Shown piece by piece: positions 2,701-43,187 of a stretch of DNA of 50,639 nucleotides. The DNA lies in assembly GCA_903879985.1 (NCBI GenBank), contig CAIRNR010000007.1, forward strand, positions 412,880 to 463,518, in the 5' to 3' direction. Position numbers and translations under genes: made by a program. The notes under the pieces are model-generated. The model saw nothing but the letters and a program-made list of their open reading frames with translations. It was not told where the DNA came from and did not search any database. The stretch's first letter is position 1, and every line of letters begins with the position of its first letter. The DNA comes from an uncultured candidate division WWE3 bacterium. GTDB taxonomy: Bacteria; Patescibacteriota; WWE3; UBA101185; UBA10185.

Positions 2701-2837
2701 ACGCTATGACCTTAGAAGAAGCCAAAACGATATTGGGCGAAGTGGCTACAAGTATGAGCGACCAAGAAATTGAAAAGCTTATAATGTTTATTGAGAAACT
2801 TTGTAATAAATTTATTGAAGAAGCAACAAAACAGTAA
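2697..2837 (+). CDS. 46-aa protein missed by the ORF track (MNAMTLEEAKTILGEVATSMSDQEIEKLIMFIEKLCNKFIEEATKQ)
   Basis: ATGA overlap with the SpoVG stop; TAA 2835-2837 is 1 nt before recombinase ATG 2839. Confidence 0.65.
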   Translation: MNAMTLEEAKTILGEVATSMSDQEIEKLIMFIEKLCNKFIEEATKQ

Positions 2838-2838
2838 A

Positions 2839-15939: not shown

Positions 15940-16263
15940 TTATAGTATAGCGCTATTAATTCCAAATAATTTCATAACAATGGTCTTTATTGTAAATGTA
16001 AAAACGCCTATTAGAAAGGCTATCACTGCCCATGTGAGAGATGTTTTGGCCTCTTGCACAGCTTTAGGATCCCCCTGAGACATTATAAATTTTAGAAATG
16101 AATACGCAATTGCAATAAGTGAAATACCTATAGCCAAAACAATGACTACGTTTACACCTAAATATATAACTGAATATAAGGAGTAGCTGTCTCCAATAAA
16201 AGGAGATACGCCGCCTATTCCTGAATTGCCTATTACTAATTGTAAATTATCAAAAGGATGCAT
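15940..16263 (-). CDS. VirB2/TrbC-like pilin
   Basis: TM-KFIMSQGDPKAVQEAKTSLTWAVI-TM. Confidence 0.85.
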   Translation of the reverse strand: MHPFDNLQLVIGNSGIGGVSPFIGDSYSLYSVIYLGVNVVIVLAIGISLIAIAYSFLKFIMSQGDPKAVQEAKTSLTWAVIAFLIGVFTFTIKTIVMKLFGINSAIL

Positions 16264-16278
16264 AACAAAACACCAACC

Positions 16279-16299
16279 AGGCCCGGGGTTACCGGGCCT
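16279..16299 (-). terminator. GC-rich stem-loop after the putative major pilin
   Basis: AGGCCCGG-N5-CCGGGCCT perfect 8-bp stem. Confidence 0.55.
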
Positions 16300-16325
16300 T
16301 TCCTAAATACAAATAAAAAACCTAA

Positions 16326-16667
16326 CTAGTACGCGGTTGTTAAGTTCGCGTTAGCACCGATTAATGACAAAAGTATTCTTCTTAATGCGTAAACTAACAA
16401 CAAACCAACAGCGCCAATTACGGCATAAGTAAGTGTTTTTTGAGCACTTTCTACAGCAGTCTTATCTCCTTGAGATGTGACGTATTTAACAAAACCTAGC
16501 GCTAACATAACTATAACTACTGCAATACCTACAACGATGATGACATTAGTAATTAACGTAACTAACTCATTCAAAGAGGTGATATTCATTCCTTGAATCT
16601 CGGTAGTTCCCACTCCTTGTTGTGCTTGTGCGAACAATGGTGTGACAAATGAAAGTAATAAATTCAT
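16326..16667 (-). CDS. VirB2/TrbC-like pilin (likely major)
   Basis: Signal peptide (LFAQ), KYVTSQGDKTAVESAQKTLTYAVIG; AAGGAGGT upstream. Confidence 0.85.
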   Translation of the reverse strand: MNLLLSFVTPLFAQAQQGVGTTEIQGMNITSLNELVTLITNVIIVVGIAVVIVMLALGFVKYVTSQGDKTAVESAQKTLTYAVIGAVGLLLVYALRRILLSLIGANANLTTAY

Positions 16668-16690
16668 GTTATTAAAAAACTACACCTCCT

Positions 16691-17785
16691 TTAAAAATTT
16701 GGACCCGAACCAGTTACCATGCTAATTATAACCTTTAGAATGTATAAGGACAATAAAATGAATATTGTTCCTAATATTGCGGAAGTTAAGTGTTCTTGGC
16801 CTTCTTTTACCTTTTGGGGATCTCCTTCACTTGTCATGAGCAAATATCCGGCATAAACAATAAATATTCCGCCCAGAGTTAAACCTACGTAAAACAATAT
16901 CTTAACTATTGGGCCCAGTAGCTGAGACAAATCCTTTATAGTATGACTGTTGTAAGGAGTATAAGTGGGTGTAACAACAGAAGGCGCATTGCCGTCACCA
17001 CAGTGCAAGTTTGCTAAACAGACAAGGCCATCATAGCAGGGTTGACCCACTTCAATACCTGGACAACAAACTTTATTCATATATCCACAAGAAGTGTCTA
17101 TAGGTGTTGGAGCCGCACAAGCTCCCGCAACACACTGTAAATTATTATTACAGTAGGGAGAACCACGCTCAAAACAACAAGGGCCTGAAACACTACCACA
17201 CCTGTTACCATAGCACGCGGAACCAACTTTATTGGGGTCACAACAATTAGTGCGATCAGCACATACAAAACCGTTTTTACAAAAAGTAGTCGCTGCGGAA
17301 TCTCCAGCGCGACAACAACTCTTACCCTCGGCATCACAATTAATGTCTGTTGAGTTAAGTTTACAAGTACCTCCAGTACAATAAGTACCCGCACCACATT
17401 TATCCCCTGCACAACAAGGCCCATTGGTTACGCCGCAAGTAGCACATGTATCGGACGTACCACAGACAAGGGTGGTCCCGGTACAATAATGAGGATCTTT
17501 ATCTTTACAACAAGCACTACCAGGACTTGTACATGTATTTGGTGAAGGTGGTGCGGGGACATAACATTTTGGAAAATTTGGATCTGTTGTGGAATCACAA
17601 ATTAAACCAGGATATATTCGGTCATCACATGTATATTCGGCTGTGCCTGTTATTGGGTTAGGCCCACCGCAACATGTAGCACCTTTATAAGTGCAATCCG
17701 TTTGCGCAAAAGATACTTTTGAAAAAGCAAATTGGGACAATAACAATATGAAAAAACAAAATGAAAAAGTTTTGAGCTTACCCAT
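16691..17785 (-). CDS. Pilin fused to six Cys-rich repeats
   Basis: Signal peptide, six C-x6-CC-..C-..C-..C modules, C-terminal MTSEGDPQKVKEGQEHLTSAILG. Confidence 0.85.
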   Translation of the reverse strand: MGKLKTFSFCFFILLLSQFAFSKVSFAQTDCTYKGATCCGGPNPITGTAEYTCDDRIYPGLICDSTTDPNFPKCYVPAPPSPNTCTSPGSACCKDKDPHYCTGTTLVCGTSDTCATCGVTNGPCCAGDKCGAGTYCTGGTCKLNSTDINCDAEGKSCCRAGDSAATTFCKNGFVCADRTNCCDPNKVGSACYGNRCGSVSGPCCFERGSPYCNNNLQCVAGACAAPTPIDTSCGYMNKVCCPGIEVGQPCYDGLVCLANLHCGDGNAPSVVTPTYTPYNSHTIKDLSQLLGPIVKILFYVGLTLGGIFIVYAGYLLMTSEGDPQKVKEGQEHLTSAILGTIFILLSLYILKVIISMVTGSGPNF

Positions 17786-17847
17786 AGTCAAAGTATAACA
17801 ATAAACAATAAAAATTTAAACAATAACCAGACTGGTATAATAAACCC

Positions 17848-19638
17848 ATGCCCGACAAAACCCATACTCCCTCAAAGATCTATCAGATTTTTATAGGCAC
17901 AATAATGCTGTCAGCAGTGTTATTCGGTATCAAACCCTTGGTATTTGCAAAAAATCCCTGCGATAGCGACAAGAATAGCGACGACTGCTACGCATACCTT
18001 CAAGCACAATATGATTCCACAAGTAAACAACTTAACGACATCAGAACTCAAAAAGATAGCATCAGTAAAAAACTAAGCGACTACGCCTCCCAACTAACAG
18101 TTACCCAAAGTCAGATTAACGATTTAGAAGCACAAATTAGTAAAACCGAAACCGACCTTGCAGCGATAAACCAAAGTCTTCAAGAAACAAAGGGCTCACT
18201 ACAAGGCAAAATTGATTTGCGGGATACAGTTTTACGAAACTACGCAATGCATCATCAACTTAATGATTTGGAAACTTTTTTGGCATATAAAACAGGCGTC
18301 AATCTCACGGGATTTCAATTCTCTGCTCTTTCACAGGAATTTAGTAAAGCAGTTACAGAACAAACTGTGAAAATAATTGGCGGACTAAATTCAGAGATTA
18401 ACAGTTATGAATCAGACAAAGCTGAAGGTGAAAAGTTAAAAGGCGAATTAGAAGATAACCAACAAAAATTCTTAGCAATGAAAAATGATTTAGCCAACAA
18501 AAAAACATCGGCACAAACGCAATTAACAAATGTTACTCAAACAGAAACTACTCTAGAAACAAAACTAGCCGAACTTAGTGCACAACAACAATCAATTTTG
18601 TCGGCAAAAAACGGCGAAGGCACAGGATCGGTTGGAGATTTTGAATCACCGAAAGTAACTACACCAAATCCTCCATCTGGATTTGGAACAGCTTTTGCGG
18701 CATTTAGTTACGGCGCATACACGCATTACAACGGCATGAGTCAGTATGGCGCAAAGGGGCGCGCAGATTCCGGTCAAAAATACGATAAGATTTTAAAGTT
18801 CTATTACAAAGTAGGCACTACAAAACAAAAAGGTTTAGATTCAAGCAAAATCAGTGTACAAGGGGCAGGCACAATGACTTACCGAGACTATTTATATGGA
18901 CTTGCTGAAATGCCAGCTACTTGGCCAATAGAGGCCTTAAAAGCACAAGCAGTTGCAGGTAGAACATACGCAAGTAAAGCAGGTAAACCTATTTGTACTT
19001 CTCAAAGTTGTCAGGTATTTAGTAAAAGTAAATCCGATGGCGTAAAGAACGGACAATATCCTTTATGGAAAAAAGCCGTCGATGATACTGCCGATGAAGT
19101 TTTAGATAATTCGAGCACCTCACAATATTCTTCAACTACTGGCGGATATATAAACAACATTGGCTGGGATACAAGCGGAAATTGGCCAGGCGACGCATAC
19201 GAAAAGAAAGCAGCATCACCTTGGTTTTATAAAGCTTGGTACATAAAAAGTTATGCTGACACAAGCAACTGTGGTCGAAATCACCCATGGCTTACCGAAA
19301 AAGAAATGGCCGATATTTTAAATTCATGGGTTGTTTGGAATAAAGGCTCAAGTAGCGATAAAGGACGAATTTCACCTGTAACAACAAGCTGCTGGGGAGG
19401 AAATCCATATTCATTAACTGATATGGCAGATAAAGCCGATAAATATGGCGATAAATACACAAGCATAAGTAGCGTAGACGTTACAGTTGGAAACAATGGT
19501 ATTACGTCAAAAGTAACTTTCCAAACTAACAATGGTTCCGTTAGTATTGATGGTGACACTTTTAAAAGCGTCTTTAACTTACGTGCTCCAGGCTATTTAT
19601 CTATTAAGAGTAGATTGTTCGATATCGAAAAGAAGTAA
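17848..19638 (+). CDS. SpoIID/LytB-domain lytic transglycosylase with N-terminal coiled coil
   Basis: YLYGLAEMP..WPIEALKAQAVAGRTY, CQVF, GMSQYGA motifs. Confidence 0.9.
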   Translation: MPDKTHTPSKIYQIFIGTIMLSAVLFGIKPLVFAKNPCDSDKNSDDCYAYLQAQYDSTSKQLNDIRTQKDSISKKLSDYASQLTVTQSQINDLEAQISKTETDLAAINQSLQETKGSLQGKIDLRDTVLRNYAMHHQLNDLETFLAYKTGVNLTGFQFSALSQEFSKAVTEQTVKIIGGLNSEINSYESDKAEGEKLKGELEDNQQKFLAMKNDLANKKTSAQTQLTNVTQTETTLETKLAELSAQQQSILSAKNGEGTGSVGDFESPKVTTPNPPSGFGTAFAAFSYGAYTHYNGMSQYGAKGRADSGQKYDKILKFYYKVGTTKQKGLDSSKISVQGAGTMTYRDYLYGLAEMPATWPIEALKAQAVAGRTYASKAGKPICTSQSCQVFSKSKSDGVKNGQYPLWKKAVDDTADEVLDNSSTSQYSSTTGGYINNIGWDTSGNWPGDAYEKKAASPWFYKAWYIKSYADTSNCGRNHPWLTEKEMADILNSWVVWNKGSSSDKGRISPVTTSCWGGNPYSLTDMADKADKYGDKYTSISSVDVTVGNNGITSKVTFQTNNGSVSIDGDTFKSVFNLRAPGYLSIKSRLFDIEKK

Positions 19639-19733
19639 GCGCTAGCGACGAGGCAGCGCAAAAGTTAGAACGCTGTTGGCGTTAATGATAGGTCGCTCTA
19701 GCGACGTATCGCAGTATGCGATATAATCAAGTT

Positions 19734-20297
19734 ATGGTATTCAGCTCATTTATAGCGGATCCGCAAAGAACATCTTACGACGGTGCAGACGCCGATGAAA
19801 ACGTTAAATACGTTCTTCGTCGAAGTAAAATAACAAATATCCCCTGGCTTATTGCCACAGTAATCATGATAGCTTTACCTGTATTCGGCGTACCTTACAT
19901 TCTGGGTATTAAGTTTTCAGGAGAAATAGTATTTAAAGAAAACTATGTTTTTGTAGCGACATTATTTTGGTATTTAGCCACATTCGGTTTCTTTTTTCAA
20001 AAATTCGTAAATTGGTTTTTTAATGTTTTGGTTATCACAAACAAAAAACTTGTCGATATGGATTTTATTGGCTTAGCATACAAAAACATTTCAGAAACTA
20101 TGCTTTACAATATTGAAGACGTAACGTCTAATATCACAGGTATAGTGGGAACAATATTTAATGTAGGTGATGTTTTTATACAAACCGCAGCTGAAATGAG
20201 AGAATTTGAATTTATAGGTGCAGACGATCCTTCAAAAGTAAGAGACTTGATTATAGATTTAGTTGAGAAAACGAAAGGACACAATGCTACCCATTAA
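19734..20297 (+). CDS. Membrane protein with bacterial PH domain
   Basis: Two TMs, then VITNKKLVD...IEDVT...FNVGDVFIQTA. Confidence 0.8.
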   Translation: MVFSSFIADPQRTSYDGADADENVKYVLRRSKITNIPWLIATVIMIALPVFGVPYILGIKFSGEIVFKENYVFVATLFWYLATFGFFFQKFVNWFFNVLVITNKKLVDMDFIGLAYKNISETMLYNIEDVTSNITGIVGTIFNVGDVFIQTAAEMREFEFIGADDPSKVRDLIIDLVEKTKGHNATH

Positions 20298-20496
20298 GAC
20301 CGTAGGAATTGCTATAGAAATAGTAGGAATATTCTTTATGGCCATGTACATTGTTTTTGCATTTATTTTGATGCGCCAAGTACGTTTAATGAATGATAGT
20401 TTATCCACGCCCGTAAAACATGTATTCAGCCTTGTAGCCTTGATTCACTTCTTAGCCTCGTTGTTAATATTTTCCTTAGCTATACTTGCGATTTAG
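20284..20496 (+). CDS. Small two-TM protein (DUF5657-like)
   Basis: YIVFAFILMRQVRLMN pattern. Confidence 0.65.
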   Translation: MLPIKTVGIAIEIVGIFFMAMYIVFAFILMRQVRLMNDSLSTPVKHVFSLVALIHFLASLLIFSLAILAI

Positions 20497-20505
20497 TCTT
20501 TAAAC

Positions 20506-22308
20506 ATGAATAAAAAACTCGCCGCGAAAGTTCAACAACTAAACCCTTCGCTACCACAATACGGTACATCTTTTGCAAAGTGTATTGTGATCGAACCTGA
20601 AACCCGAGAACTTTTACTTAAAAAAGGTAGCGTTTATGCCGTTTACGAAATTTCATCTGATTCAAATTTCGACATAGCACTTATCGAAAGAGTTCTGCAT
20701 GATGTCATTTATAATTCCTACTACCAATCAGAAAATATTTCTCCAATACAATCAATGGAAAAAGCAATTGCCGACGCCCGCGATAAAGTTAGCCAACTTT
20801 CCAACGACGCATTAAGTTCAGATCCACAAAGCGTAAAGTTTAAAATCACATCAGCTGTTTTATGGGGAAACGTTTTGTATGTTGTCCAATACGATAAAGC
20901 CGAAAGTTATTTAATGCGTGAAGGTGCTATAAAACCAATAAGCACAATGACCGAAGGAACTTTTTCAGCAGCTTCCGGAATTGTTAAAGAAGAGGACGTT
21001 GTAATACTTTGCACTGCTGATTTTGCCAAAGTAATGCCTCCTCAAAAACTGTTATCGGTCAGAGTAACCGAGCAAGATTTATTACCAACACACGCATGTT
21101 TACTAATTAAGCTTTTTGTTGATACCAGTTTTACTTCCAGCGAAATTACAGATACAACTTTTCAAAAAGAAATGGGAAAAACTAAAGTCAACGGTGTGCA
21201 AGATGCCGGAGGAAAAATTTTAAAAACCGCAGCAATAAAAGTTGGAGGTGTTTTAAAAAAAGCTTTTGATAAAACCTCAAAACGTGTGCGCATTGTTAAA
21301 GTTCCAACTATTCCTGCACAAGCTTTATATAACAAAGTAAATAAAAACACATTGAAAAACAAAGGACTTATTATTTTACCAATCATCGCACTCGCACTTG
21401 TTGGTTCAATTGTTATAACAAAACTTACAAATAAAAAGCCTGTGGTAAAAACACAAAATACTACTGCGCAACAAACCACGACAACCGACGATAAGCAACA
21501 ACAAAATGAAGCTACACTTTTACCAACCACTACAGATAAACAATTTAAAGTAACGCGCATTGCCCCACAAGTTTTATACGATATAAAAATCACTGATCCA
21601 CAAACACAACCAACAGAAATAACAAATACAAGTAGTTTAATAATTGTTACCGATAAAACATCAGGAAAAATATATACATCACCAAAAGACGCTATAAAGT
21701 TTGATTTGCTTACAGGAACATTCCCCGGAATCAGAAGCATAACTACAGATAAAGGTAACCTTCACTTTTTAGATGCCTCAGGATACAAAATAATAAATTC
21801 TGCTACGGGCGAGGTCACAGAAAAGTATCCCTTAACAAATCCTACAGTCTCAAATACATACTCTGACTTTTTATATGTAGTTTCCGGCGACACACTGATA
21901 AGGTATTCACATAAGAACGGAACTCTACAAAGCGTAACTTGGGGTGAAAATACAACGTTCGCAAATGCCAGATCAATTGCTATTGCCTACAGTATTTATG
22001 TAATCACCTCTGACGGAACGTTAGAAAAATACACAAGCGGAAACAAAGTTACCTTTGCAATTAAAGGCTTAGACGATTCGTTGGCAGGTGCCACAAAGGT
22101 TATAGCTAACAGCGATTTAAAGAATGTTTACGTGCTAGATTCTGCTAATAAAAGAATCGTGATTTTGGATAGTGACGGAAGTGTGGTAAAACAATATAAA
22201 GCAGAAAGCTCAGACACATTTTCTGACCTAAAGAGCTTTGATGTATCACAGGATGAAAAAACTTTGTATTTGTTAGATGGAAGTAAAGTTTTAACTATTG
22301 ACTTATAG
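20506..22308 (+). CDS. PP2C-like N-domain, TM and beta-propeller-like C-domain protein
   Basis: SYLMREG..EEDVVILCT degenerate PP2C pattern; YVLDSANKRIVILD repeats. Confidence 0.65.
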   Translation: MNKKLAAKVQQLNPSLPQYGTSFAKCIVIEPETRELLLKKGSVYAVYEISSDSNFDIALIERVLHDVIYNSYYQSENISPIQSMEKAIADARDKVSQLSNDALSSDPQSVKFKITSAVLWGNVLYVVQYDKAESYLMREGAIKPISTMTEGTFSAASGIVKEEDVVILCTADFAKVMPPQKLLSVRVTEQDLLPTHACLLIKLFVDTSFTSSEITDTTFQKEMGKTKVNGVQDAGGKILKTAAIKVGGVLKKAFDKTSKRVRIVKVPTIPAQALYNKVNKNTLKNKGLIILPIIALALVGSIVITKLTNKKPVVKTQNTTAQQTTTTDDKQQQNEATLLPTTTDKQFKVTRIAPQVLYDIKITDPQTQPTEITNTSSLIIVTDKTSGKIYTSPKDAIKFDLLTGTFPGIRSITTDKGNLHFLDASGYKIINSATGEVTEKYPLTNPTVSNTYSDFLYVVSGDTLIRYSHKNGTLQSVTWGENTTFANARSIAIAYSIYVITSDGTLEKYTSGNKVTFAIKGLDDSLAGATKVIANSDLKNVYVLDSANKRIVILDSDGSVVKQYKAESSDTFSDLKSFDVSQDEKTLYLLDGSKVLTIDL

Positions 22309-22347
22309 TATTAATTACTAGAATAAGCAGTTGTACTTAAATCCGTC

Positions 22348-22376
22348 TTGACCAAATAAGGCTTTATAAGTACAAT
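22348..22376 (+). promoter_or_regulatory. sigma70-type promoter
   Basis: TTGACC-17 nt-TACAAT. Confidence 0.6.
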
Positions 22377-22392
22377 ACTGTCTGCTCACATC

Positions 22393-22746
22393 ATGTTAGA
22401 AAAGAAATTTATTGTTGAAAATTTACAAAAGACGCTATGTTACAAATGCGGCGCAAGTCTGGGAGAGGCTAAACTCGTACCACTTACGAACGCTCAAGTA
22501 GCATGGATCGCACATGCAGTCTGCCCAATCTGCAAAGCAGAAAGTATGGTAACAATTACATCGGCAGGCAGCGGAATAACGCCCGTACAATCAGACCTTA
22601 CAGGTATGGAGTACAAAAAGTTCGTGGGCATTAAATCCGTCAGCTACGATGAATTGCTTGACTTGCATGTGGCTTTAAAAAAGGAACCTTTATGGAACTT
22701 ATTGCAGAAAAAAGAGAAAAGCTTGGAAAAGCATCGAAAAGCCTAA
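22393..22746 (+). CDS. Zinc-ribbon hypothetical protein
   Basis: CYKC and CPIC; overlaps the rplY start. Confidence 0.7.
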   Translation: MLEKKFIVENLQKTLCYKCGASLGEAKLVPLTNAQVAWIAHAVCPICKAESMVTITSAGSGITPVQSDLTGMEYKKFVGIKSVSYDELLDLHVALKKEPLWNLLQKKEKSLEKHRKA

Positions 22747-23420: not shown

Positions 23421-23470
23421 AAAAAAAAGGACTCGCAGAAACATTTTATTGTTTTCCGTGAGTCCTTTTG
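23421..23470. terminator. Bidirectional intrinsic terminator
   Basis: AAAAGGACTC...GAGTCCTTTT between convergent genes. Confidence 0.75.
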
Positions 23471-23490: not shown

Positions 23491-23757
23491 CTATTTCTTG
23501 AGCAATACGATGGCAGTGCTTGTTTTATCTTTATTTCGCTCTGCCAAAATTTTTGCAACATACGGGGGGTAAGTTGAAGTATCCGCATGCTGTTGCCGAA
23601 AGTGTTTATGCCAATCTAAATCCTTTTGTAAATTGGCTATAACCTGGCGGCTTTTTGGAGGCTTTGCAGCTTCTACCGCGGCAGCATTGCCTTTGATAAA
23701 ATCACCACATAGCGTAAACAGTTGTTTAGCTAATTTTAGCGTGAGTGGTGCTCCCAT
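23491..23757 (-). CDS. Hypothetical basic protein
   Basis: AGGAGAGAGGA SD; 88 aa. Confidence 0.65.
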   Translation of the reverse strand: MGAPLTLKLAKQLFTLCGDFIKGNAAAVEAAKPPKSRQVIANLQKDLDWHKHFRQQHADTSTYPPYVAKILAERNKDKTSTAIVLLKK

Positions 23758-23772
23758 TTTTCCTCCTCTCCT

Positions 23773-25434
23773 TTAGAACTTTCCAAACATCAAAACAAGA
23801 AAAGCCCCGTTTACTGCAAGGGAAAGTAATATATCCCAAGCCGTAGCGAGACCTATCCGCCCAACCACAATCTTTGACCATTTATCGCTGTTAACCGCAT
23901 CGGTTTTATCGTTCATCCAACCGGCAACAAATGTTTCGGCGAGCATCACAATCAGAAATGCTACAACCGGAGAACCGAAAAGTGCAACAGAGGGTTCCTG
24001 AATCAGCGCTAACTGACGAAGACCTACATAGAGCGCAATACCCAAGTACACCATAAGTACACCTCCCCATTTTAAGGACTTATCCGCGGCATCTTCCTTG
24101 TCGTCATCTCCCGAGGCTACCTTAGACTTTGGACGAACTAATTCGACTATCGAGAGAAGTACTGCAGCGAAAAGAACAAGGTAGGTCACAACAGACGCCT
24201 GCGACTCCCCAAACCTTTTCTGGCTCCATAGGCCTAAGATCTGCCATACGGGGTACAGCGGAGACAACTGCATACCAAACATCTGATTAAAAACCTGGGA
24301 AAACGTACCCAAATTTCCAAACCAGACTCCACCCACAACAGATATGCCGGCCAAATATAAAATGCCGGGACTAAAATCAAGGCCACCCTGATAGCAAAAG
24401 CTTATTACCGCTACTAAGGTTGCCACTGATACCGTCTGCGCGACACCCTGCACGTTTAGAGCAGTTAGTGCATTAACAATTGGCGGCCAATTACCCACCA
24501 GAAGTACCAAAACTATTCCAATTACAGCTACCACCCAATCGCCACGCTGCTTGTTGCGCCTACGATCCAAATAGCATGCGGCCACCATGATAGCGACGCA
24601 ACCAATTAAAAAGAAGTGCAAGTCACCTAACCATGGCGAGTTTGCGACATCAATAGGTTGCAGTTTTACTGGAGGCGGGGCCGGGACAAAACTATCTGCC
24701 TGAGCTGTTGGAGTCGCAGAAACCGTGTGTAAAACCCCGGTTTTGGTCATTCCAAAAACAAACAAGGCCAGCAAAATCCCCACAGCTACTGCTACCATAA
24801 TTAAAGTAACAAGTTGCTGGTGACCTTTAGAAATACTCGGTTTGGCATAGACGCGAGCTTTAGAAGGTAAAGGAGTTTCATCTGCGTCATCAAACCCTTC
24901 GTCATCACCTTCCTCAAACTCGTCGCCATCTTCTTCGTCGTCATCTTCAAACTCATCCCCCTCTTCCTCAGCGTCATCCAAATCTTCTTCTTCCTCATCA
25001 GGGGACACACCTTCGTCATCACGTTCAAGCGGAACATACGCGACAGGAGTACGTCTTGCGGCAGCTTGAGCAGCACGAGGATCCGGACGATCTTTAAGAT
25101 ATACTTCTTGATCCATGTCTTCTGTTACTTCCCAGATACCCCGTTTACTTGTACGCACTCCACCAAGCGTGGCACTTACAACAAATGCGCCACTACCTGG
25201 AGGAACCATCAAAACGGCGCAACCTTTAGCATCGGTGATTTTGGTTACTGCTTCAAACGTTACCCTAGCACCTTTGACAGGTTTCGCGTTTATACTGGTG
25301 TCAAAAACATAGACCGCAAGTTCTACCAAGGCAACAGCCCTTTTTTGCGGAGCACCTTTTTGCGTTTGCGCCTTTTTTGTAGGAGCAGCAGCTTGAGGCT
25401 TCTTCGCAAACGGATTCGGAATCTTTATTCCCAT
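23773..25434 (-). CDS. Polytopic membrane protein with beta-sandwich-like N-domain and D/E-rich linker
   Basis: PVKGARVTF..TDAKG motif, about 50-aa acidic tract, about 10 TM segments; purine-rich SD. Confidence 0.8.
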   Translation of the reverse strand: MGIKIPNPFAKKPQAAAPTKKAQTQKGAPQKRAVALVELAVYVFDTSINAKPVKGARVTFEAVTKITDAKGCAVLMVPPGSGAFVVSATLGGVRTSKRGIWEVTEDMDQEVYLKDRPDPRAAQAAARRTPVAYVPLERDDEGVSPDEEEEDLDDAEEEGDEFEDDDEEDGDEFEEGDDEGFDDADETPLPSKARVYAKPSISKGHQQLVTLIMVAVAVGILLALFVFGMTKTGVLHTVSATPTAQADSFVPAPPPVKLQPIDVANSPWLGDLHFFLIGCVAIMVAACYLDRRRNKQRGDWVVAVIGIVLVLLVGNWPPIVNALTALNVQGVAQTVSVATLVAVISFCYQGGLDFSPGILYLAGISVVGGVWFGNLGTFSQVFNQMFGMQLSPLYPVWQILGLWSQKRFGESQASVVTYLVLFAAVLLSIVELVRPKSKVASGDDDKEDAADKSLKWGGVLMVYLGIALYVGLRQLALIQEPSVALFGSPVVAFLIVMLAETFVAGWMNDKTDAVNSDKWSKIVVGRIGLATAWDILLSLAVNGAFLVLMFGKF

Positions 25435-25470
25435 TTTTCCCTTCCTTTCACTTTCTGACTGAATATGAAT

Positions 25471-25605
25471 TTTTCAAAGTGCATGATCTGCCTAAAAGAA
25501 TTTCTTAAGCAGTGAATACGTACTTGTAGTTCCGAGTGATGAAAAATTAATTTCCTCAACCGGAGTACAAGCAGAATTGGATTATGTTTCAAACACAATT
25601 CTGCT
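25471..25605 (-). promoter_or_regulatory. Three-hairpin leader ending in boxA-like GCACTTTGAAAA
   Basis: Inverted repeats at 25570-25605, 25523-25571 and 25488-25512; motif at 25482-25471. Confidence 0.5.
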
Positions 25606-25636
25606 AGTTTAAATCTGGTTAATTGAACGAAGAACT

Positions 25637-26839
25637 TTATTTTTTGGGCAGCCAGTCTTTTGAAGTAACTGCGGCAGCCACGTCGGGATCGGAAGCAACT
25701 AAAACGTAAAGGTTGTCCCTAAATTTATTTTCTAAATCATCGGGGATTACCTTCTGTGGTGTTGGCGAATCCAATCCTTGTAGATAATAGAACTCACCGT
25801 CTTTATTTGGCATTTCTATTACTACCGATAGTGTATTCAAACCTGTATAACCTCCCTTAATTGCGGCATCCTCAGCGGCGACTTTTAAATTATCGTAGGG
25901 CCAAGGGTTCGTGGGATCTGGAGAGGGATTGCTAAAGTGGTATTGCACCAGCTGGAACAACTTCTCCAAATTAGTTCTGGAACGACTACCGTCGGGCTGC
26001 ATTGGCGCCAACGTGTTCCAATAAGCAAGTTGGTAGCTAAGGTTATCAGCTTCATCTATCATTCCAGTGATGAAGTTGGGGTCTCCTTGCCACACTGTCT
26101 TGGAAACATCCAAAAAGGCGCGAGTTACTGCGGCCGGACTATCCAAGGTTTTCTTAACAACGTTACCGGGTTGAATACCTCCGGTCAAAAGTCCGAAACG
26201 TGCTTTAATAACCACGTCAGCCTTTTGTGTCTTTGTTATCTTTCTTGCAATAGAATCCGTCACGGGCGTGTTATCTACGCTGGTAACGGTGATGTTGGTT
26301 TGAAGATCACGTTGTAAAACACCACCATACAAACTCATGAGCATGGCAGTCATAGCGCAATAACGCGTCCCCGGCACAAGCATAAGAATTTTATCTTTTG
26401 CTGGGGCATTGGCCGCTACTCCGGGCTTTGAAAAATATCCTTGCTTACAAAAAGGACCTAAACCGGCAACGTCAATTTCTGACGATATTCTGCCATCCAG
26501 TCCTGCCGTTGCAACTTTTCCCGATAATGCCTGCGAAACTTTTCCGGCATCACCTTCTTTCAAATCTGTTGTCCAAGGTATCCATGTACTTACTTGATCA
26601 TGACCTTGAGGGCCGGGTGTTACCGTAGCCCTGCCGATATTCGCAACAACAGCATCTACGCCATTTATATGTGCCACCTGTGAGTCTGGTGCGATGAGGT
26701 ATAAATAACCGCCAACGACCATAGCCAAAATTATTGCTATAAGCACTATAAAAGCTAAGATTACGTACGGACTCATACCACCCACAACAACTACTGTCGG
26801 CGGTGAATAACCACTACGATATCTTCTTCTTTGAGGCAT
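25637..26839 (-). CDS. Single-TM exported hypothetical protein
   Basis: AAGGAGG SD; Arg-rich N-terminus followed by TM. Confidence 0.8.
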   Translation of the reverse strand: MPQRRRYRSGYSPPTVVVVGGMSPYVILAFIVLIAIILAMVVGGYLYLIAPDSQVAHINGVDAVVANIGRATVTPGPQGHDQVSTWIPWTTDLKEGDAGKVSQALSGKVATAGLDGRISSEIDVAGLGPFCKQGYFSKPGVAANAPAKDKILMLVPGTRYCAMTAMLMSLYGGVLQRDLQTNITVTSVDNTPVTDSIARKITKTQKADVVIKARFGLLTGGIQPGNVVKKTLDSPAAVTRAFLDVSKTVWQGDPNFITGMIDEADNLSYQLAYWNTLAPMQPDGSRSRTNLEKLFQLVQYHFSNPSPDPTNPWPYDNLKVAAEDAAIKGGYTGLNTLSVVIEMPNKDGEFYYLQGLDSPTPQKVIPDDLENKFRDNLYVLVASDPDVAAAVTSKDWLPKK

Positions 26840-26869
26840 AACTTCCTCCTTAACACTTAACTATGAGAA

Positions 26870-26912
26870 GATCCGCGCCACGAAATAAATTACATCTCGT
26901 GGACGCGGACCT
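26870..26912. other. Intergenic GC-rich stem-loop
   Basis: TCCGCG-CCACGA...TCGTGG-A-CGCGGA. Confidence 0.55.
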
Positions 26913-26926
26913 GTTAAAAACCTAAA

Positions 26927-28570
26927 TTACTTAAACGGCGAAAGGCAAATGCCGCTTGAGTTATAGTCAATCTTCGGATCGGCAAGCCACAAGCATTTGC
27001 CAAACTCCATCGTGCCACCTTGATACAAGGGCATAACTTCCGAAAAATCGACAACAAAGCGAGGGCTATCGGGATTTTCACATCCACCGATACCCAGCGT
27101 TACTGTGTTTACACTTACGTTACAACTGGCCGCAAGGCTCCACCCTTTTTGAGCGAAGATGCTGACCATTTGCGCGAGTGGAATCGCAGCAGCTACTTTT
27201 GGCGTCGATGTTGGAATCGGCTGAGGCGTAGGTGTTGCGGTACCAACCGGGTAAAAAACGCTGCATTGAAATAGCCAAAGGCCGTTCAATGCACATTCCA
27301 TCCCGTTACTTATGCCGTCACCCCGTCCATGCATTGGGTTAAGCATAATCTGTGCACCGGTCCAATTTCCCGTTGCTCTTCCACCACCTGGGAGATTCCA
27401 GTAAAGCGAATTCCCCGGCCAATTTAATACCTGACGCACGCAAATCCATGCTTTGTAAGCATCAGGGCCATTACCGCCAACTCTTTCAGAATAAGCGGTC
27501 ATCCCGTATTCAGAAGGTCTGAATTCGAGGTAATTGTGTCCTTGCAAAACGCTACCCAGGGACCAAAAATCTGTAGCGTTTACAACTTGCACGCAGTTCT
27601 GTGCCACTGAATCTAAAATTAGAGCTTGCACCGTCGGCGCCATCTCAGTTTTAATTGCGGCCTCCGTCATACGCGCTTGCATTGTAGGGACCATTGCGGT
27701 CTTAACTGCAGCACTCGCATCAGTCGGCACAACCATCAAAGTCTTTGCATAAGACTGTTGAGTCGAGATAGCCGAATCAGGTGTAACCGCGATCAGCGTC
27801 GGAATATGCGCCACAATAATAGTGGGCATCGGCGTTGCCGGCGGTATATCTGTAGGCATTGGCAAAAAGTTCGTAGGAGTTGCCGTTGGGGTTCCTCCAC
27901 GAACAGTTACGCCAGTTGTGTCAGAAGCAGCAGAATCATCACTGTTTGGTGAAGGATCCCACTGGGTATCTCCTGGCGGCTGTACATCTTTAGCATTAAT
28001 TGCTGGATCAGGCGTAGCATTTAGAGAATACGCCGGAAGAGCAAACCAACCAATGTCTGGCTTATCGCTGTCATGAACATCCTGAACAGCCTTTTTAACT
28101 GCATCCAACATCTCCGGGTGGTCTGGATAGGCAAGAGTTTCTGCCAACCAATCTACCCCAATAATTTTTCTGCCGGATTTGGTTACGCCAGTGTTGTTCA
28201 GGAACACTTTCCATTTTGCTTTTTGAATGCAAAAATTCTGGACAGTGTCCTTTAAAGCAGGCACAGGGTTAAGCATTCCTGTACCATCAAACTTAATCGC
28301 AGTTGCCCCATCACACGCAAAATTGTCAGGGTTATTTTGATTGGTAAGCTTGTCAATAAAACCCAACATGCCACCCTTAGCGCCAGCGTTATTAGCGAGG
28401 CTCATCAAGGTGATTCCGTTGTAAGCGATGTAAATTCCGAAACCAACCCACGCCAAAAAAACCACCAAAGCAAGAACCATAAGGATTTTTGCCACAGGAT
28501 TTGTCTTCTCGATCGTGGGCGAAGCAACAACGCGCCGTCGTTTCGATCTTCTTACTACATTGTCTGACAT
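26927..28570 (-). CDS. Single-TM exported protein with Pro/Thr-rich linkers
   Basis: GGAGG SD before ATG 28570; RRSKRRR then TM; TPTATPT linkers. Confidence 0.8.
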   Translation of the reverse strand: MSDNVVRRSKRRRVVASPTIEKTNPVAKILMVLALVVFLAWVGFGIYIAYNGITLMSLANNAGAKGGMLGFIDKLTNQNNPDNFACDGATAIKFDGTGMLNPVPALKDTVQNFCIQKAKWKVFLNNTGVTKSGRKIIGVDWLAETLAYPDHPEMLDAVKKAVQDVHDSDKPDIGWFALPAYSLNATPDPAINAKDVQPPGDTQWDPSPNSDDSAASDTTGVTVRGGTPTATPTNFLPMPTDIPPATPMPTIIVAHIPTLIAVTPDSAISTQQSYAKTLMVVPTDASAAVKTAMVPTMQARMTEAAIKTEMAPTVQALILDSVAQNCVQVVNATDFWSLGSVLQGHNYLEFRPSEYGMTAYSERVGGNGPDAYKAWICVRQVLNWPGNSLYWNLPGGGRATGNWTGAQIMLNPMHGRGDGISNGMECALNGLWLFQCSVFYPVGTATPTPQPIPTSTPKVAAAIPLAQMVSIFAQKGWSLAASCNVSVNTVTLGIGGCENPDSPRFVVDFSEVMPLYQGGTMEFGKCLWLADPKIDYNSSGICLSPFK

Positions 28571-28586
28571 TTCTTCCTCCGTTTGA

Positions 28587-30140
28587 TTATTGATATCTTT
28601 GATAAATTGCAAGCACAGTATCCGCATAGGAATAACCTACATCCATGGGACCATAACTTCGTAACGCTTCACGATCGCTTCCATAACGAGACTTCAGCCC
28701 AGATAACATACCTGTGCTATAAGAAACGTTATATTCTGGATCCTTTAATTGCGCTGTAGACGGGCGATTCGCAAAACACGGACCACCGCTACACATAAAA
28801 CTAGCAGCAAGGCCATCTTTAGGCATTACTTGTAACAAACCAACTGCTCCCGAACCTGAATAAGCGTTCGGATTTCCTCCACTTTCTTGCAACATAGTTG
28901 CAGCTACAAGATTTGGATCCAGATGGTTTTTTGAGGCATAGGTCGATATGAAGCCACACCATTGCAGAATGTCTTGAGGGTATTTACCACTCACAGCACA
29001 ATTTGCATTATTACTTTGTGAGGCTTGTTTGTTTACTGCACCTGAGGCCTTTGTCGTGTTTTGGGGTACAGACGTAGGTTTAGGCGCAGGTGTTGGCGGA
29101 TCCGGAAAGATAATCTCCTTTTCCACTGCGGGATCCAAAACCTGTTGCGGAACAGCACCCAAGGATGAGCCCGCGACAGTATCAGCTGGAACAACTTGAG
29201 CAGGCACGAACAAAACAATAACCATAGAAATTGTAGTAATTAAACTTATCGCTATCCAAAGCGGTCGCCAACTCTTGTTAACCAGAACCAATAATACGGA
29301 AATTGCGAATAAACCTAAATACCAATACAAAGGCAACATCCTGATGTAATCAAAAGGAGTTGGTCCTGTTGGTTTAGGTAACTGCACATTCAACATTTTT
29401 TCAACTACAGCCCCTTGAGAAGACGTTTGCCCAGGAATTGAATCCCAAACTACATCTCCGGGCTTTGAAAACGATATCGGCGCGGAACCGTCTTTTGCAG
29501 GACCCATTCCACCACCAACATTTTTGTCCGTTCCATCAGGCACGCCACCAATATTGCCATTAGCAGGTGACTGCTTCTGAGGGGACACTACTTTTCCGGA
29601 TGTATCGCTTTCGGTTAAACAAGTGAAAGGATCCATCCATCCGGAACCAACTTCCTGTTTGTGTTCATAAAAACTCACAAACTTTTCTGGCGGTTTATCT
29701 GAGCAACCCCAATGTAAAACCGGTCCAGTTGTTGTTGGCTTTTTTAATAAATCCCATCCAGATTCTCCTGATAACGCAATGGGTTGCCCTGCAGAAACAG
29801 TGTCACCCTCTTTAACGTTTACAGAAGTTAGATGTGCATAAAACAAGTAATGACTTCCTGTCTGGATCCACAGATCTTTTCCGTAGGACCACCAGTTATC
29901 AAAAATCGCGTATACCTTACCTTCAACTGGTGAAGTAACTTGGGTTTTTAAACCACAACCAAAGTCAACGCCTGTATGATTCTTTTCATAGGGGTTCCAT
30001 TTGGAATAATCCTGGTAATAGGTTCCTTGTATGGAACAATTTGCCGGAGCGGGTAAAGCAGCCCGAACAGCAAAATAAACTAGCGTGAGAGCAAGAAGTG
30101 CTCCTACGCCGGAAATACAAAATCTCAAATTCGCGCGCAA
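28587..30140 (-). CDS. M23 peptidase + SLT lytic transglycosylase fusion
   Basis: HTGVD, YAHL, GPVLH (M23); QESGGNPNA..GAVGLLQVMP (SLT); AGGAGG before TTG 30140. Confidence 0.9.
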   Translation of the reverse strand: MRANLRFCISGVGALLALTLVYFAVRAALPAPANCSIQGTYYQDYSKWNPYEKNHTGVDFGCGLKTQVTSPVEGKVYAIFDNWWSYGKDLWIQTGSHYLFYAHLTSVNVKEGDTVSAGQPIALSGESGWDLLKKPTTTGPVLHWGCSDKPPEKFVSFYEHKQEVGSGWMDPFTCLTESDTSGKVVSPQKQSPANGNIGGVPDGTDKNVGGGMGPAKDGSAPISFSKPGDVVWDSIPGQTSSQGAVVEKMLNVQLPKPTGPTPFDYIRMLPLYWYLGLFAISVLLVLVNKSWRPLWIAISLITTISMVIVLFVPAQVVPADTVAGSSLGAVPQQVLDPAVEKEIIFPDPPTPAPKPTSVPQNTTKASGAVNKQASQSNNANCAVSGKYPQDILQWCGFISTYASKNHLDPNLVAATMLQESGGNPNAYSGSGAVGLLQVMPKDGLAASFMCSGGPCFANRPSTAQLKDPEYNVSYSTGMLSGLKSRYGSDREALRSYGPMDVGYSYADTVLAIYQRYQ

Positions 30141-30183
30141 GATACACCTCCTGAGTGTATATATACTTAAGTTCTTCATTCAA

Positions 30184-30231
30184 TTATCAAAGTGCTTACG
30201 TTACAAGTCATTACGACTCTAAATAACGTAA
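30184..30231 (-). promoter_or_regulatory. Hairpin followed by boxA-like GCACTTTGATAA
   Basis: TTACGTTA/TAACGTAA stem 30196-30231; motif at 30195-30184. Confidence 0.5.
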
Positions 30232-30453
30232 TTTAAACGGTACAAATTTGGTACCGAAACAACATCCTCGTAGTATTTACTCACTAAGAGAATAACGTGA
30301 GGGTACCAAGATTAAATTTTTGGGACAGAAGTATAAAGGGAAAAAGAAAAATGAGCTCAGTTGTACCTTTCTAACCGAATTGGGCTATTAGAAAAACTAA
30401 CAATCTTATACCAAAATAATAAGGGAAACGCAACCTATAGAGGTTATTATCAA

Positions 30454-32703
30454 CTAATTCTCAACTTGGGGCCAAGAGGCTATTATCAATAAATCTTCGG
30501 AATCGTTTCGGATAGCAGAAATCTCACCCCAAACTGCTTCTGTAACAAAAGGCATAAATGGGTGTAGAACCTTTAAACAAGACACAAAAAGCTGTCGTAG
30601 CACGCTTAGAGCCACTTCCTTGTCTTCACGGGATTTAACATTTTCAATATATTTGGAAGCAAGTTCGTCCCACATGTAATGGTAAATTGCGTCAGACGCA
30701 TCCGAAAAACGATATTTTTCTAAGCTTTCATTTACTAATTTAACCAAGGAATTAAATCCGGAAATCATTTCTTTGTCCATATCCTGTAGGCCGTCCATGT
30801 TTGCGGAGAACTCTTTAACAGTTCCACCAGCTTTTGCAACATCGTCAAACATCATTTCCATAAATCGGGCCATATTCCAAATCTTATTGGCGAAATTTCT
30901 AAAGGCGATAACTTTATCCTTTGGGAAGGCAAAGTCTTTACCATTGGCCGTACCGCTGATCAAACCCATACGTAAAGCGTCGGTACCATACTGATCTTGA
31001 TACTCTTCAGGGTTTATTACATTTCCCAAACTTTTACTCATCTTTTTACCGTCAACAGCCATAACGCGGCCATGTAAGTAAACATCGTTAAAAGGCACTT
31101 CTCCCGTTAAATAAACGCCGAACATAAGCATTCGGGACACCCAACGGGTAATAATTTCCCAACCTGTTTCTAAAACACTTGTTGGATAAAAATACTTAAA
31201 GTCTTCTGAATCAGGATAACCCAGTGTAATTAAAGGCCACTGACCGCTTGAAAACCAAGTATCAAAAGTATCAGTTTCCTGTAAAAAGTTTTCACCTGGC
31301 TTTTCTTTGCTCACAACGTATTTAGCACTTATTGGAGCCATTAAACTTTGTAAGCCTGTTTCGATTTGTTCAAAAGAATAAGTTTTAAGGAGGTCGCCAA
31401 CTTTTCCTGTGACACCTTTTCCCTCACTACCTAAAAAGGTAACGGTCATATCAGGATTTTCAGTTGTGCTATACCAAGCCGGAACTCTTATACCCCAAAC
31501 AATTTGTCGGGAAATCGCCCAATCGTGCATGTTTTCCATCCAACGTTCAAAGGTTATTTCTTGCCATTTAGGAAAAATTCTAACATCCTGTTTTTTGTAC
31601 TTTTCCATTACGGCATCTCGCAACGGGCCTGTTTTTACAAACCAGTTGGGCATTAACAATTGCTCCACGTAATCTTCGGTACGATAGTCAACAGGAACCA
31701 AGCTTGTGTAGTTTTCATCAATTTTTTCTAGCAAACCAGCGGCTTGTAAGTCTTCTACAACGGCTTTTCTTGCATCCAAAACTTTCATCCCTGCATATTT
31801 ACCCGACAAAGCATTCATTTTACCGTCAACACCAATTACGGACTTAACTTCAAGATTGTGGCGTAAACCAATTTCGTAATCGTTTTTGTCGTGGGCCGGA
31901 GTTACTTTTAAAACACCCGTACCAAAACTGAAATCAACATAGCTATCAGCAATAACTGGGATTTTTTGTTTTCCTAAAGCATCTTCAAACTCAACTTCGG
32001 TGCCAATATATTTTTGGTAACGCGCGTCATCTGGATTAACAGCCAAAGCAGTATCTCCAAACTTAGTTTCAGGGCGCACCGTAGCAACAGTTAAAGGACC
32101 ATATTTAATGTAATAAAGTGATTGCTTGGTTTCTTTTAGCGTAATTTCAGCATCCGAAAAAGTTGTACCGTACTTAAAAGAATAGTTAACAATGTAACCG
32201 GCACGATAGATTTTGTCGTCATCAACCATTTTTTTAAAGGTATCAAGAACAGTGCTTATCGAACGATCGTCGAGTGTGAAAGTGTAACGCGACCAATCTA
32301 AACTGGCTCCCATGTTTTTAAGTTGAGTTTCAATGGCGTGCTTGTTGCCTAAAACAAACTCCATCATCATGTTGTAAAAAGTTTTACGATCGTATTGAAA
32401 ACGGGATTTATTTTCTTTTTTAAGTTCGCGCTCAAAAGTTGTTTGAGATTCAAAACCTGCGTGATCTGTACCCGGAAGCCAAAGTGCCGAGTAACCCTGC
32501 ATACGTTTCCAACGAATCAACAAATCTTCGATAGCGACCATTAAGGCGTTTCCAACATGCATCTTTCCGGAAGCGTTTGGTGGAGGCAAAACAATAGTAT
32601 AAGGCTTTTTACTTGGGTCTATTTTTGCCGTGCAGGCGCCGGAATCTTCCCACTTTTTTATCATTTCCGGTTCAACTAGTTTGTGATTAAATGCTTTATC
32701 CAT
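30454..32703 (-). CDS. valS: Valine--tRNA ligase
   Basis: PPPN, PGTDHAG, TVRPET, DWAISRQ, DTWFSS, KMSKS. Confidence 0.97.
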   Translation of the reverse strand: MDKAFNHKLVEPEMIKKWEDSGACTAKIDPSKKPYTIVLPPPNASGKMHVGNALMVAIEDLLIRWKRMQGYSALWLPGTDHAGFESQTTFERELKKENKSRFQYDRKTFYNMMMEFVLGNKHAIETQLKNMGASLDWSRYTFTLDDRSISTVLDTFKKMVDDDKIYRAGYIVNYSFKYGTTFSDAEITLKETKQSLYYIKYGPLTVATVRPETKFGDTALAVNPDDARYQKYIGTEVEFEDALGKQKIPVIADSYVDFSFGTGVLKVTPAHDKNDYEIGLRHNLEVKSVIGVDGKMNALSGKYAGMKVLDARKAVVEDLQAAGLLEKIDENYTSLVPVDYRTEDYVEQLLMPNWFVKTGPLRDAVMEKYKKQDVRIFPKWQEITFERWMENMHDWAISRQIVWGIRVPAWYSTTENPDMTVTFLGSEGKGVTGKVGDLLKTYSFEQIETGLQSLMAPISAKYVVSKEKPGENFLQETDTFDTWFSSGQWPLITLGYPDSEDFKYFYPTSVLETGWEIITRWVSRMLMFGVYLTGEVPFNDVYLHGRVMAVDGKKMSKSLGNVINPEEYQDQYGTDALRMGLISGTANGKDFAFPKDKVIAFRNFANKIWNMARFMEMMFDDVAKAGGTVKEFSANMDGLQDMDKEMISGFNSLVKLVNESLEKYRFSDASDAIYHYMWDELASKYIENVKSREDKEVALSVLRQLFVSCLKVLHPFMPFVTEAVWGEISAIRNDSEDLLIIASWPQVEN

Positions 32704-40141: not shown

Positions 40142-40142
40142 A

Positions 40143-43008: not shown

Positions 43009-43079
43009 AAGTTGAAGGGAGTACGTTTCTGGGGCAGAAAAATCTTGTTTAGCAATTACCTGACAAAAATATACATAAG

Positions 43080-43088
43080 TTATCCACA
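43080..43088. promoter_or_regulatory. DnaA box upstream of dnaA
   Basis: Perfect TTATCCACA. Confidence 0.75.
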
Positions 43089-43187
43089 ATGATAAAGCAA
43101 CGATAGTTGCATAGACCCTAGAAAACATGTTATTGTACAAATGTGTTTATTTTGGTACAATTCAGGGTTCGGTAAGGTGGTGAAAAT

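Follow-up and report, generated by a model that had tools for sequence, protein, structure and literature searches.

PrgK, the wall hydrolase of the type IV secretion system (T4SS) of the Enterococcus faecalis plasmid pCF10, has a degenerate LytM domain and an active SLT domain that is checked by the other domains, and it binds the bitopic protein PrgL, as reported (doi 10.1101/2024.02.15.580431). In Ca. Southlakia epibionticum ML1, peptidase and lysozyme homologues encoded downstream of virB4 are reported to be essential for epibiotic growth, as cited in a second paper (doi 10.1101/2025.01.22.634366). Here, a cluster of five genes (g1 to g5) is described that lies between valS and rplY in a 50,639-nucleotide (nt) stretch of contig CAIRNR010000007.1; this whole stretch is referred to as the window. 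The first gene encodes a membrane-tethered protein with an M23 and an SLT domain, and it is followed by genes for four proteins of no named family, three of them membrane proteins. The cluster is tentatively read as an accessory, exchangeable, PrgK-like peptidoglycan-opening module of a freshwater Saccharibacteria-like bacterium. In this module, a tethered SLT enzyme, together with an M23 domain whose function is reduced or regulatory, would be placed or restrained by partner proteins and would act most likely on the cell's own wall. This reading is regarded as quite possible rather than as probable.

An original prediction, made from the sequence alone, had listed five co-oriented genes between rplY and valS. 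The open reading frames (ORFs) were confirmed, all on the minus strand within 23491-30179:

28587-30179, minus strand: g1, ORF of 530 amino acids (aa) from ATG, probably 517 aa from TTG 30140
26927-28570, minus strand: g2, ORF
25637-26839, minus strand: g3, ORF
23773-25434, minus strand: g4, ORF
23491-23757, minus strand: g5, ORF of 88 aa
22692-23369, plus strand: rplY, flanking gene; g5 and rplY converge
30454-32703, minus strand: valS, the other flanking gene

The M23-SLT enzyme and its described counterparts

The operon had been predicted to be headed by an enzyme with M23 and SLT domains, accompanied by membrane proteins. Pfam searches and hydropathy analysis bore this out. Following features were located in g1, including a transmembrane (TM) hairpin:

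29703-29981, minus strand: M23 (LytM-type) domain, residues 67-159, Pfam Peptidase_M23 PF01551, 60.8 bits against a cut-off of 28.7
29205-29336, minus strand: TM hairpin, residues 282-325 (282-300 and 307-325), between the enzyme domains, from a hydropathy scan
28653-28949, minus strand: SLT domain, residues 411-509, Pfam PF01464, 62.3 bits against a cut-off of 21.3

Hydropathy analysis also indicated an N-terminal membrane anchor (residues 16-34), and g1 contains linkers of 70-120 residues rich in Gly, Pro and Ser. Since both enzyme domains flank the TM hairpin, g1 is expected to be tethered and not released.

The HxH motif of LytM and lysostaphin consists of a catalytic His and, after it, a zinc-binding His. 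The M23 domain of g1 retains HTGVD (residues 68-72) and His116 in YAHL. The HxH position reads V-L-H (154-156), compared with H-M-H in 2hsi, and the first His is missing; the M23 domain may therefore be weakened or regulatory. Its full catalytic competence is doubtful, although it is a member of the fold family. Of the predicted dual wall hydrolase, both domains were matched, but "dual" may overstate the contribution of M23.

The catalytic Glu-Ser and the GLxQ motif are present in the SLT domain as QESGG (431) and GLLQV (447), which align with those of EmtA/MltE of E. coli (PDB 3t36, 2y8p and others), an endo-type lytic transglycosylase and the best solved relative of the domain (E 9e-10). EmtA, from a diderm, is a small lipoprotein of the outer membrane, whereas g1 is a membrane-tethered fusion in a monoderm-like cell. 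The domain is predicted to act as a lytic transglycosylase or a muramidase, between which its sequence does not discriminate. Family-library scans revealed no CHAP or NlpC/P60 domain in g1. Stand-alone relatives of the SLT domain, at 40-55% identity, were found in 12 genomes of the order; the M23-TM-SLT fusion is absent from the other genomes of the order.

PrgK is, like g1, a membrane-anchored multidomain wall hydrolase in which an SLT domain comes after a LytM/M23 domain. Its degenerate LytM and active SLT domains are paralleled by the impaired-looking M23 motif (V-L-H) and the intact-looking SLT domain of g1. PrgK works with the bitopic PrgL in a membrane machine; g1 sits beside bitopic proteins, for which no sequence relation to PrgL was shown. 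Unlike PrgK, g1 lacks a CHAP domain, has a TM hairpin between its domains, retains zinc-ligand residues and has no adjacent virB4 or other T4SS gene. Hydrolases of monoderm T4SSs (PrgK, TraG, CwlT) are recognized by their place in a T4SS cluster and by the combination of a glycosidase with CHAP or NlpC/P60, whereas g1 neighbours valS and rplY and its peptidase-type domain is M23. The S. epibionticum pair shares with g1 the phylum and the pairing of a wall peptidase with a glycosidase in one locus. There, the two are separate genes beside virB4, whereas in g1 they are fused, lie 17 kb from a VirB4-like gene and are missing from most relatives. The enzyme domains and the logic of the module are already known. 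The predicted undescribed system therefore stands in part: g2 to g5 belong to no named family, but the logic matches the PrgK-type hydrolases of monoderm T4SSs.

The parallel with PrgK and PrgL also favours a second reading, in which the cluster is a detached accessory part of the Patescibacteria T4SS, with g1 as a VirB1/PrgK analogue, g2 and g3 as VirB8/PrgL-like and g4 as a VirB6/PrgH-like protein. A VirB2-like pilin array (15940-17791) lies 5.7 kb from the cassette, and an 813-aa VirB4/VirD4-like ATPase (47586-50027) lies 17 kb away, near dnaA. According to a published T4SS study, VirB1 and VirB8 are mostly undetected in bacteria of the candidate phyla radiation (CPR), probably through divergence (doi 10.1101/2025.01.22.634366), and this non-detection likewise agrees with such a reading. 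Against it, housekeeping genes lie between the cassette and either T4SS block, and the pilin-SpoIID-rplY block is kept in the cassette-less relatives G004 and G001. Moreover, g1 has no CHAP domain, g4 gave no TrbL/VirB6 match, and PF04610 and PF03135 had no match genome-wide. A T4SS origin is considered unlikely.

Bitopic proteins g2 and g3

The original prediction of two single-TM proteins with basic N-terminal tails, a polytopic protein with an acidic tract and a small basic protein was upheld by hydropathy and charge analysis. g2 has one TM segment (29-47) and a basic N-terminal tail with 7 Lys/Arg in the first 25 residues; it carries two ectodomains, joined by Pro/Thr-rich linkers, and conserved Cys residues. 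g3 likewise has one TM segment (26-44), preceded by an Arg-rich tail with 4 Arg in the first 20 residues and followed by an ectodomain of ~350 residues. The topology of both fits that of N-in bitopic VirB8/PrgL; the g3 model had a predicted local distance difference test (pLDDT) score of 42, too low to judge the fold. Prediction of a complex between the g2 and g3 ectodomains gave a score of 0.00 in a run without controls, which speaks neither for nor against a contact.

Among 5.8 billion clustered proteins, four relatives of g2 (39-45% identity) and three of g3 (46-48% identity) were retrieved. One relative of each was assigned to a 91,611-base JGI contig, and another such pair to an 8,897-base Logan contig, contig sharing being judged from equal size and source alone; relatives of g2 and g3 are thus probably linked on two further contigs. 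Pattern scans based on the g3 alignment found no match in metagenome and genome contigs, nor did the g3 profile in any of 88 other genomes of the order. Relatives of g2 carry a CxxC...CxxC zinc ribbon in place of the Arg-rich tail, and the tails of g3 relatives are short. Because the tails vary among relatives, the basic tails are better seen as ordinary positive-inside anchors than as a conserved interface. The proposed contact between these tails and the acidic tract of g4 consequently found no comparative support.

Polytopic protein g4 and basic protein g5

g4 consists of a cytoplasmic N-terminal domain, an acidic tract with 35 Asp/Glu in 55 residues (136-190, corresponding to 24865-25029), a first TM segment (TM1), a Pro-rich loop and a conserved helical membrane domain of ~300 residues (250-553); hydropathy indicates ~8 TM segments after the acidic tract. 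An AlphaFold2 model of the membrane domain reached a pLDDT above 90 across most of 250-553. Comparison of this fold with the PDB using Foldseek gave no match at E <= 0.001, and a wide VIA-align search gave a best Z of 8.6 for designed or generic helix bundles, which is uninformative. The assignment of g4 to VirB6/TrbL was not supported: PF04610 matched neither g4, nor 29 family members, nor any protein of the genome.

Using an exhaustive HMMER search, a g4 family of ~30 representatives at 22-33% identity was obtained, defined by the membrane domain. A word-indexed search had returned g4 alone, probably swamped by the acidic tract. A search with g4 alone gave no match among 40 relatives; with the g4 profile, a match was obtained in 2 of the 88 other genomes of the order. 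The cytoplasmic N-terminal domains vary within the family, with zinc ribbons in 7 of 26 members and an acidic stretch ahead of TM1 in 6 of 26.

In G439 (G439/G481), the g4 relative converges on rplY as in the window, with 240 nt of contig left upstream of the gene. g1, g2 and g3 gave no match in G439/G481, but an assembly break separates valS from the g4 relative there, so that the absence carries little weight. In the closed genome G479 (L043 7349-12103; G479:C1), a g4 relative heads an island after obg with a guanine-cytosine (GC) content of 51-57%, compared with ~42% in its flanks. Also encoded in this island are a polytopic protein, a LysM and a DUF1232 protein, and a TM protein in which an SLT-like ESGG...CQIN motif, missed by Pfam, was noted.

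The N-terminal domain of g4 (residues 32-109, corresponding to 25108-25341) matches repeats of two giant proteins, P0023 (1022 aa, 6 stretches) and P0034 (4816 aa, 17 stretches), and its sequence suggests an immunoglobulin (Ig)-like beta-sandwich. Ig-like beta-sandwich domains are normally extracellular. In g4, the candidate domain precedes TM1, without a signal peptide, at the place where relatives have zinc ribbons.

With a net charge of +8 and without a TM segment, g5 is classed as a basic soluble protein. It had no match in Pfam, NCBIfam, PHROGs or PADLOC, no homology search having been made for g5.

Expression signals

Strong Shine-Dalgarno sites had been predicted for all five genes. GGAGG-type sites were found 6-8 nt ahead of the starts of g2 to g5. 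In g1, AGGAGG (30152-30147) is located 6 nt ahead of an in-frame TTG at 30140, not of the ATG at 30179. Because of this placement and of a promoter-like site ending at 30183, translation of g1 probably starts at TTG 30140, 13 codons downstream of ATG 30179. Following candidate signals were located:

30183-30211, minus strand: sigma-70-like promoter candidate, ATGACT-17-GATAAT, 9 of 12 consensus matches
26869-26912, minus strand: intercistronic RNA hairpin between g2 and g3, 19 bp, -32.4 kcal/mol, z -5.6, 0 of 200 shuffles as good, no U-run after it
25570-25605, minus strand: hairpin in the g3-g4 spacer; fold of 25500-25636 with z -2.7, 2 of 200 shuffles as good
23421-23469, minus strand: intrinsic terminator closing the operon, stem and U8, z -4.4, 0 of 200 shuffles as good, inverted repeat I2, between the converging g5 and rplY

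The consensus scan gave fewer promoter-like sites than shuffled sequences did, so that the promoter candidate is weakly supported at best. The closing terminator agrees with the original prediction. The predicted structured leaders were not confirmed, as the structure of the g1 leader was not significant (z -1.7). The g3-g4 hairpin is a possible internal punctuation point. The gaps measure 16 nt between g1 and g2 and 15 nt between g4 and g5; the g3-g4 spacer measures 202 nt. Tight spacing, strong Shine-Dalgarno sites and a single terminator support an operon-like layout. None of the three spacers, nor the g1 leader, has a second copy in the genome, and no paralogues of g1 to g5 were found elsewhere in the same genome.

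Base composition and origin

The genome carrying the cluster comprises 1.01 Mb in 8 contigs with a mean GC of 37.5% (sd 1.9 in windows of equal length). At 45.6%, the cluster exceeds every other stretch of its length in the genome, in line with the apparently higher GC originally noted. GC and codon statistics showed elevation at codon positions 1, 2 and 3, with third-position GC (GC3) at 0.34-0.44 against a mean of 0.30; as GC is up at every codon position, both amino-acid make-up and synonymous sites contribute.

A mobile-element or prophage remnant, whether a lysis or virion-lysin module or a conjugative fragment, would account for the raised GC, synonymous sites included, for the insertion of the cluster relative to the nearest relatives, and for the matches of M23 and SLT to PHROG lysin and tail families. 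These PHROG matches are limited to two ubiquitous enzyme domains, and the SLT domain has its nearest relatives on chromosomes of the same bacterial family. As originally predicted, no mobility gene lies within the cluster. Integrase, structural gene, ATPase and flanking repeat are all absent from it, and no direct repeats or att-like sites flank it. Relatives of g2, g3 and g4 were found neither in 50,697 phage records nor in 72,556 plasmid records (both tblastn), nor in IMG/VR (pattern scan). A remnant of this kind is regarded as highly improbable. The candidate prophage lysis or virion-lysin module was rejected, there being no adjacent phage structural, holin or integrase genes and no phage relatives of g2 to g4.

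g2 to g5 had no match in Pfam, NCBIfam or PHROGs, and PADLOC gave 0 matches, both for g1 to g5 and for 10 proteins from the cassettes of G026 and G027 described below. As the nearest relatives of the g1 SLT domain and of g4 occur in the same bacterial family, their sequences point to exchange and rapid divergence within Saccharibacteria rather than to recent import from another phylum. A full-text literature search found no paper on the valS-rplY slot or on the g2 to g4 families. The M23-TM-SLT fusion, the g2, g3 and g4 families and the slot as a hotspot of hydrolase cassettes were in no library or paper searched.

Four DNA runs of lake or freshwater origin, belonging to two studies, have contigs with the identical island; the assembly may itself derive from some of these runs. 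In one run (X5), short contigs at depth 2-3 differed at 8-10 positions per ~80 bases (23911-23988 in g4 and 28363-28427 in g2); these may represent a co-occurring strain variant of the cassette.

The valS-rplY slot across the order

DNA downstream of rplY was examined in 83 other genomes of the order with an rplY match, and a convergent valS was within view in 62. Distances were taken from the end of the rplY match and include ~130 nt of rplY tail:

Below 700 nt: 42 of 62 genomes, slot empty
0.8-2 kb: 7 of 62 genomes
2.8-12.5 kb: 13 of 62 genomes, other cassettes

The nearest relatives have rplY directly next to valS. For the valS tree, 52 rows were used; 11 of 63 were dropped because the valS piece was shorter than 1.9 kb or the frame shorter than 600 residues. 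On this tree, the window is sister to seven empty-slot genomes (support 100); compared with the nearest relatives, the cluster is an insertion. In one genome of the same family, valS is 63% identical. The filled state requires 9 changes, 7 of them forced by well-supported branches, which is no fewer than for shuffled labels.

Seven of the 13 large fillings encode Pfam M23 and/or SLT proteins, and two others hold proteins clustering by BLAST with those M23 proteins, giving 9 of 13. A seven-gene type occupies the slot in G026 (L122), G446 (L077), G469 (L097) and G445 (L103), and in inverted orientation in G431 (L123). It consists of a polytopic protein of ~290 aa, proteins of ~350, ~150, ~750 and ~450 aa, an M23 protein and an SLT protein, and its members are so diverged that most fail to cluster by BLAST. 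In G027, the cassette opens with a 718-residue protein in which TM segments come after an N-terminal M23 domain. In G474, a stand-alone SLT protein, 45% identical to the g1 SLT domain, precedes TM proteins and an SPFH protein. The seven-gene and G027 types share with the window cassette the slot, the raised GC and the combination of M23 and/or SLT with polytopic and bitopic proteins; they differ in gene order and strand, and g2 to g4 have no detectable homologues there. Even between similar cassettes, most proteins are singletons (BLAST, E 1e-6). Hydrolases are paired with membrane proteins in 9 of the 13 large cassettes and again in the G479 island, which supports the reading as a peptidoglycan-opening module.

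Two other fillings were observed. The G461 slot (L124 569-5479) holds a reverse transcriptase, a phospholipase D (PLD)-family nuclease-like gene, an ATP-binding cassette (ABC)-membrane-like gene and a type IV pilin-like gene, and may be a defence-type insert rather than a wall cassette. In genus g366 (G472, L087 1090-2400; G471, L068 3942-5222), a rplY-adjacent protein of 426-436 aa with an ATP-synthase alpha/beta-type nucleotide-binding domain adjoins a protein of ~480-497 aa that carries M23 at its C-terminus; the slot content here is a variant that includes an ATPase.

With respect to the unit originally predicted, homologue and synteny comparisons gave a mixed picture: the five genes are not one conserved unit, the g4 family and the SLT domain occurring separately, but the g2-g3 pairing and the theme of hydrolase with membrane proteins recur. 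The genes may have no joint function, the valS-rplY gap serving as a dumping ground for unrelated accessory envelope genes with only a promoter in common. The g4 family without g1 to g3, the SLT domain alone in 12 genomes, the unequal profile matches (g3 0/88, g4 2/88), the unrelated content of slots such as G461 (reverse transcriptase, PLD nuclease, ABC-like protein) and the 202-nt g3-g4 spacer with its hairpin, which permits two transcription units, are all in keeping with this. It is countered by the apparent linkage of g2 and g3 on two further contigs, by the recurrent hydrolase and membrane-protein pairing just mentioned, and by the tight spacing, uniform strand and elevated GC of all five genes. 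We hold it to be rather unlikely, yet a serious contender.

In another reading, the cluster is a host-breaching module: tethered g1 would reach over the contact zone on its long linkers and open the host wall, g2 and g3 would face the host, and the cassette would be swapped according to the host wall. Cultivated Saccharibacteria are obligate epibionts, and the virB4-adjacent peptidase and lysozyme homologue of S. epibionticum are reported to be essential for epibiotic growth (doi 10.1101/2025.01.22.634366). The slot is hypervariable, its proteins are mostly BLAST singletons, and the 9 changes on the 52-row tree, as many as for shuffled labels, form a pattern that typifies loci of conflict or host interaction. 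The hypervariability is explained equally well by phage pressure on surface proteins, however; g1 is anchored in its own membrane on either side of the M23 domain, and most relatives have no cassette in the slot. A host-breaching role is judged improbable. By extension, the slot could be a dedicated exchange site for fast-diversifying wall-opening cassettes that set which host walls the epibiont breaches or docks to. The window cassette would then be one host-range allele, comparable with the lysin or receptor-binding modules of phages, though located on the chromosome and tethered to the membrane; this too has a small chance of being correct.

Proposed mode of action

The PrgK-like module reading starts from the observed gene content, domains, topology signals, insertion and patchy distribution. 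From these, we infer enzymatic activity, complex formation and the target wall as follows. The signal anchor and the TM hairpin would hold g1 in the cell's own membrane and expose two wall-directed domains. The EmtA-like SLT domain would most likely cleave glycan strands. The M23 domain, with zinc ligands kept and one catalytic His missing, may cut peptide cross-links weakly, or may bind or regulate as the LytM domain of PrgK does. Jointly, they would open a local peptidoglycan gap beside the membrane. g2 and g3, as bitopic N-in proteins with large ectodomains, and g4, as a polytopic scaffold, would position or restrain the enzyme, and g5 would act on the cytoplasmic side. The cell's own wall is the most likely substrate, presumably opened for surface structures to pass or to be built.

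Several results weigh against this module. The slot is empty in 42 of 62 genomes, including the 7 nearest on the valS tree, so that the function of the cassette would be dispensable or done elsewhere in those relatives. Four of the 13 large cassettes (G016, G460, G022, G461) contain no hydrolase. g2, g3 and g4 showed no homology by BLAST to proteins of other slot cassettes, and hhalign against the seven-gene families gave probabilities of 2%, 1% and 0.1%, respectively; the theme shared between cassettes is therefore carried by hydrolase domains and membrane topology alone. In L026, a g4 family member lies between a Wzy_C-TPR gene and mreB with penicillin-binding protein genes, with no hydrolase nearby, and g4 may hence have a function of its own. 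As to the folds of g2 and g3, the AlphaFold2 model of g3, built from 4 sequences, had a pLDDT of 42 and the ESM Atlas model a pLDDT of 0.30, both too low for use. Finally, no RNA run was listed as holding the 6,950-base stretch.

Genomic neighbourhood

Upstream of rplY in the window (15940-22746), a syntenic block was observed that recurs in several relatives, whether the slot is filled or not (L017, L025, L027, L046). It comprises three VirB2-like pilin genes (15940-17791), a gene for a SpoIID-domain protein (17848-19638), genes for a 193-aa, a 600-aa NHL-like and a 117-aa protein, and rplY. On the far side of valS, dnaA (41611-43140) lies a few kb from genes for a PilM/FtsA-like protein (46352-47545) and for the VirB4/VirD4-like ATPase. 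According to a published remark, T4SS genes of Patescibacteria often lie near the replication origin, with which the proximity of dnaA and ATPase fits.

A MurT/GatD-like pair, consisting of a Mur ligase with a MurT C-terminal domain and a CobB/CobQ-type amidotransferase, is encoded at 39368-41288. It indicates amidated peptidoglycan stem peptides in this organism, which bears on the substrates that the hydrolases meet.

A large serine recombinase gene (2791-4407, plus strand; Resolvase and Recombinase domains) overlaps the 3′ end of the transfer-messenger RNA (tmRNA) gene (4373-4760, minus strand). The tmRNA gene is a classic integration site. Given this site and the overlap, an integrated element may lie to the left of the tmRNA gene.

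Implications

How ultra-small epibionts pass their own wall, and perhaps that of the host, is largely unexplained, and the locus gives a concrete tethered M23-SLT enzyme. It adds three unnamed membrane-protein families, among them g4, the helical domain of which is confidently modelled and without a solved counterpart. If the cassette remodels the cell's own wall only, it would be an ordinary accessory autolysin operon with unusual partners. The slot is bounded by two universal genes, and hydrolase cassettes are gained, lost, inverted and replaced there. It thereby offers a simple entry point to accessory envelope systems in Saccharibacteria genomes and to comparisons of cassette type with host or habitat.

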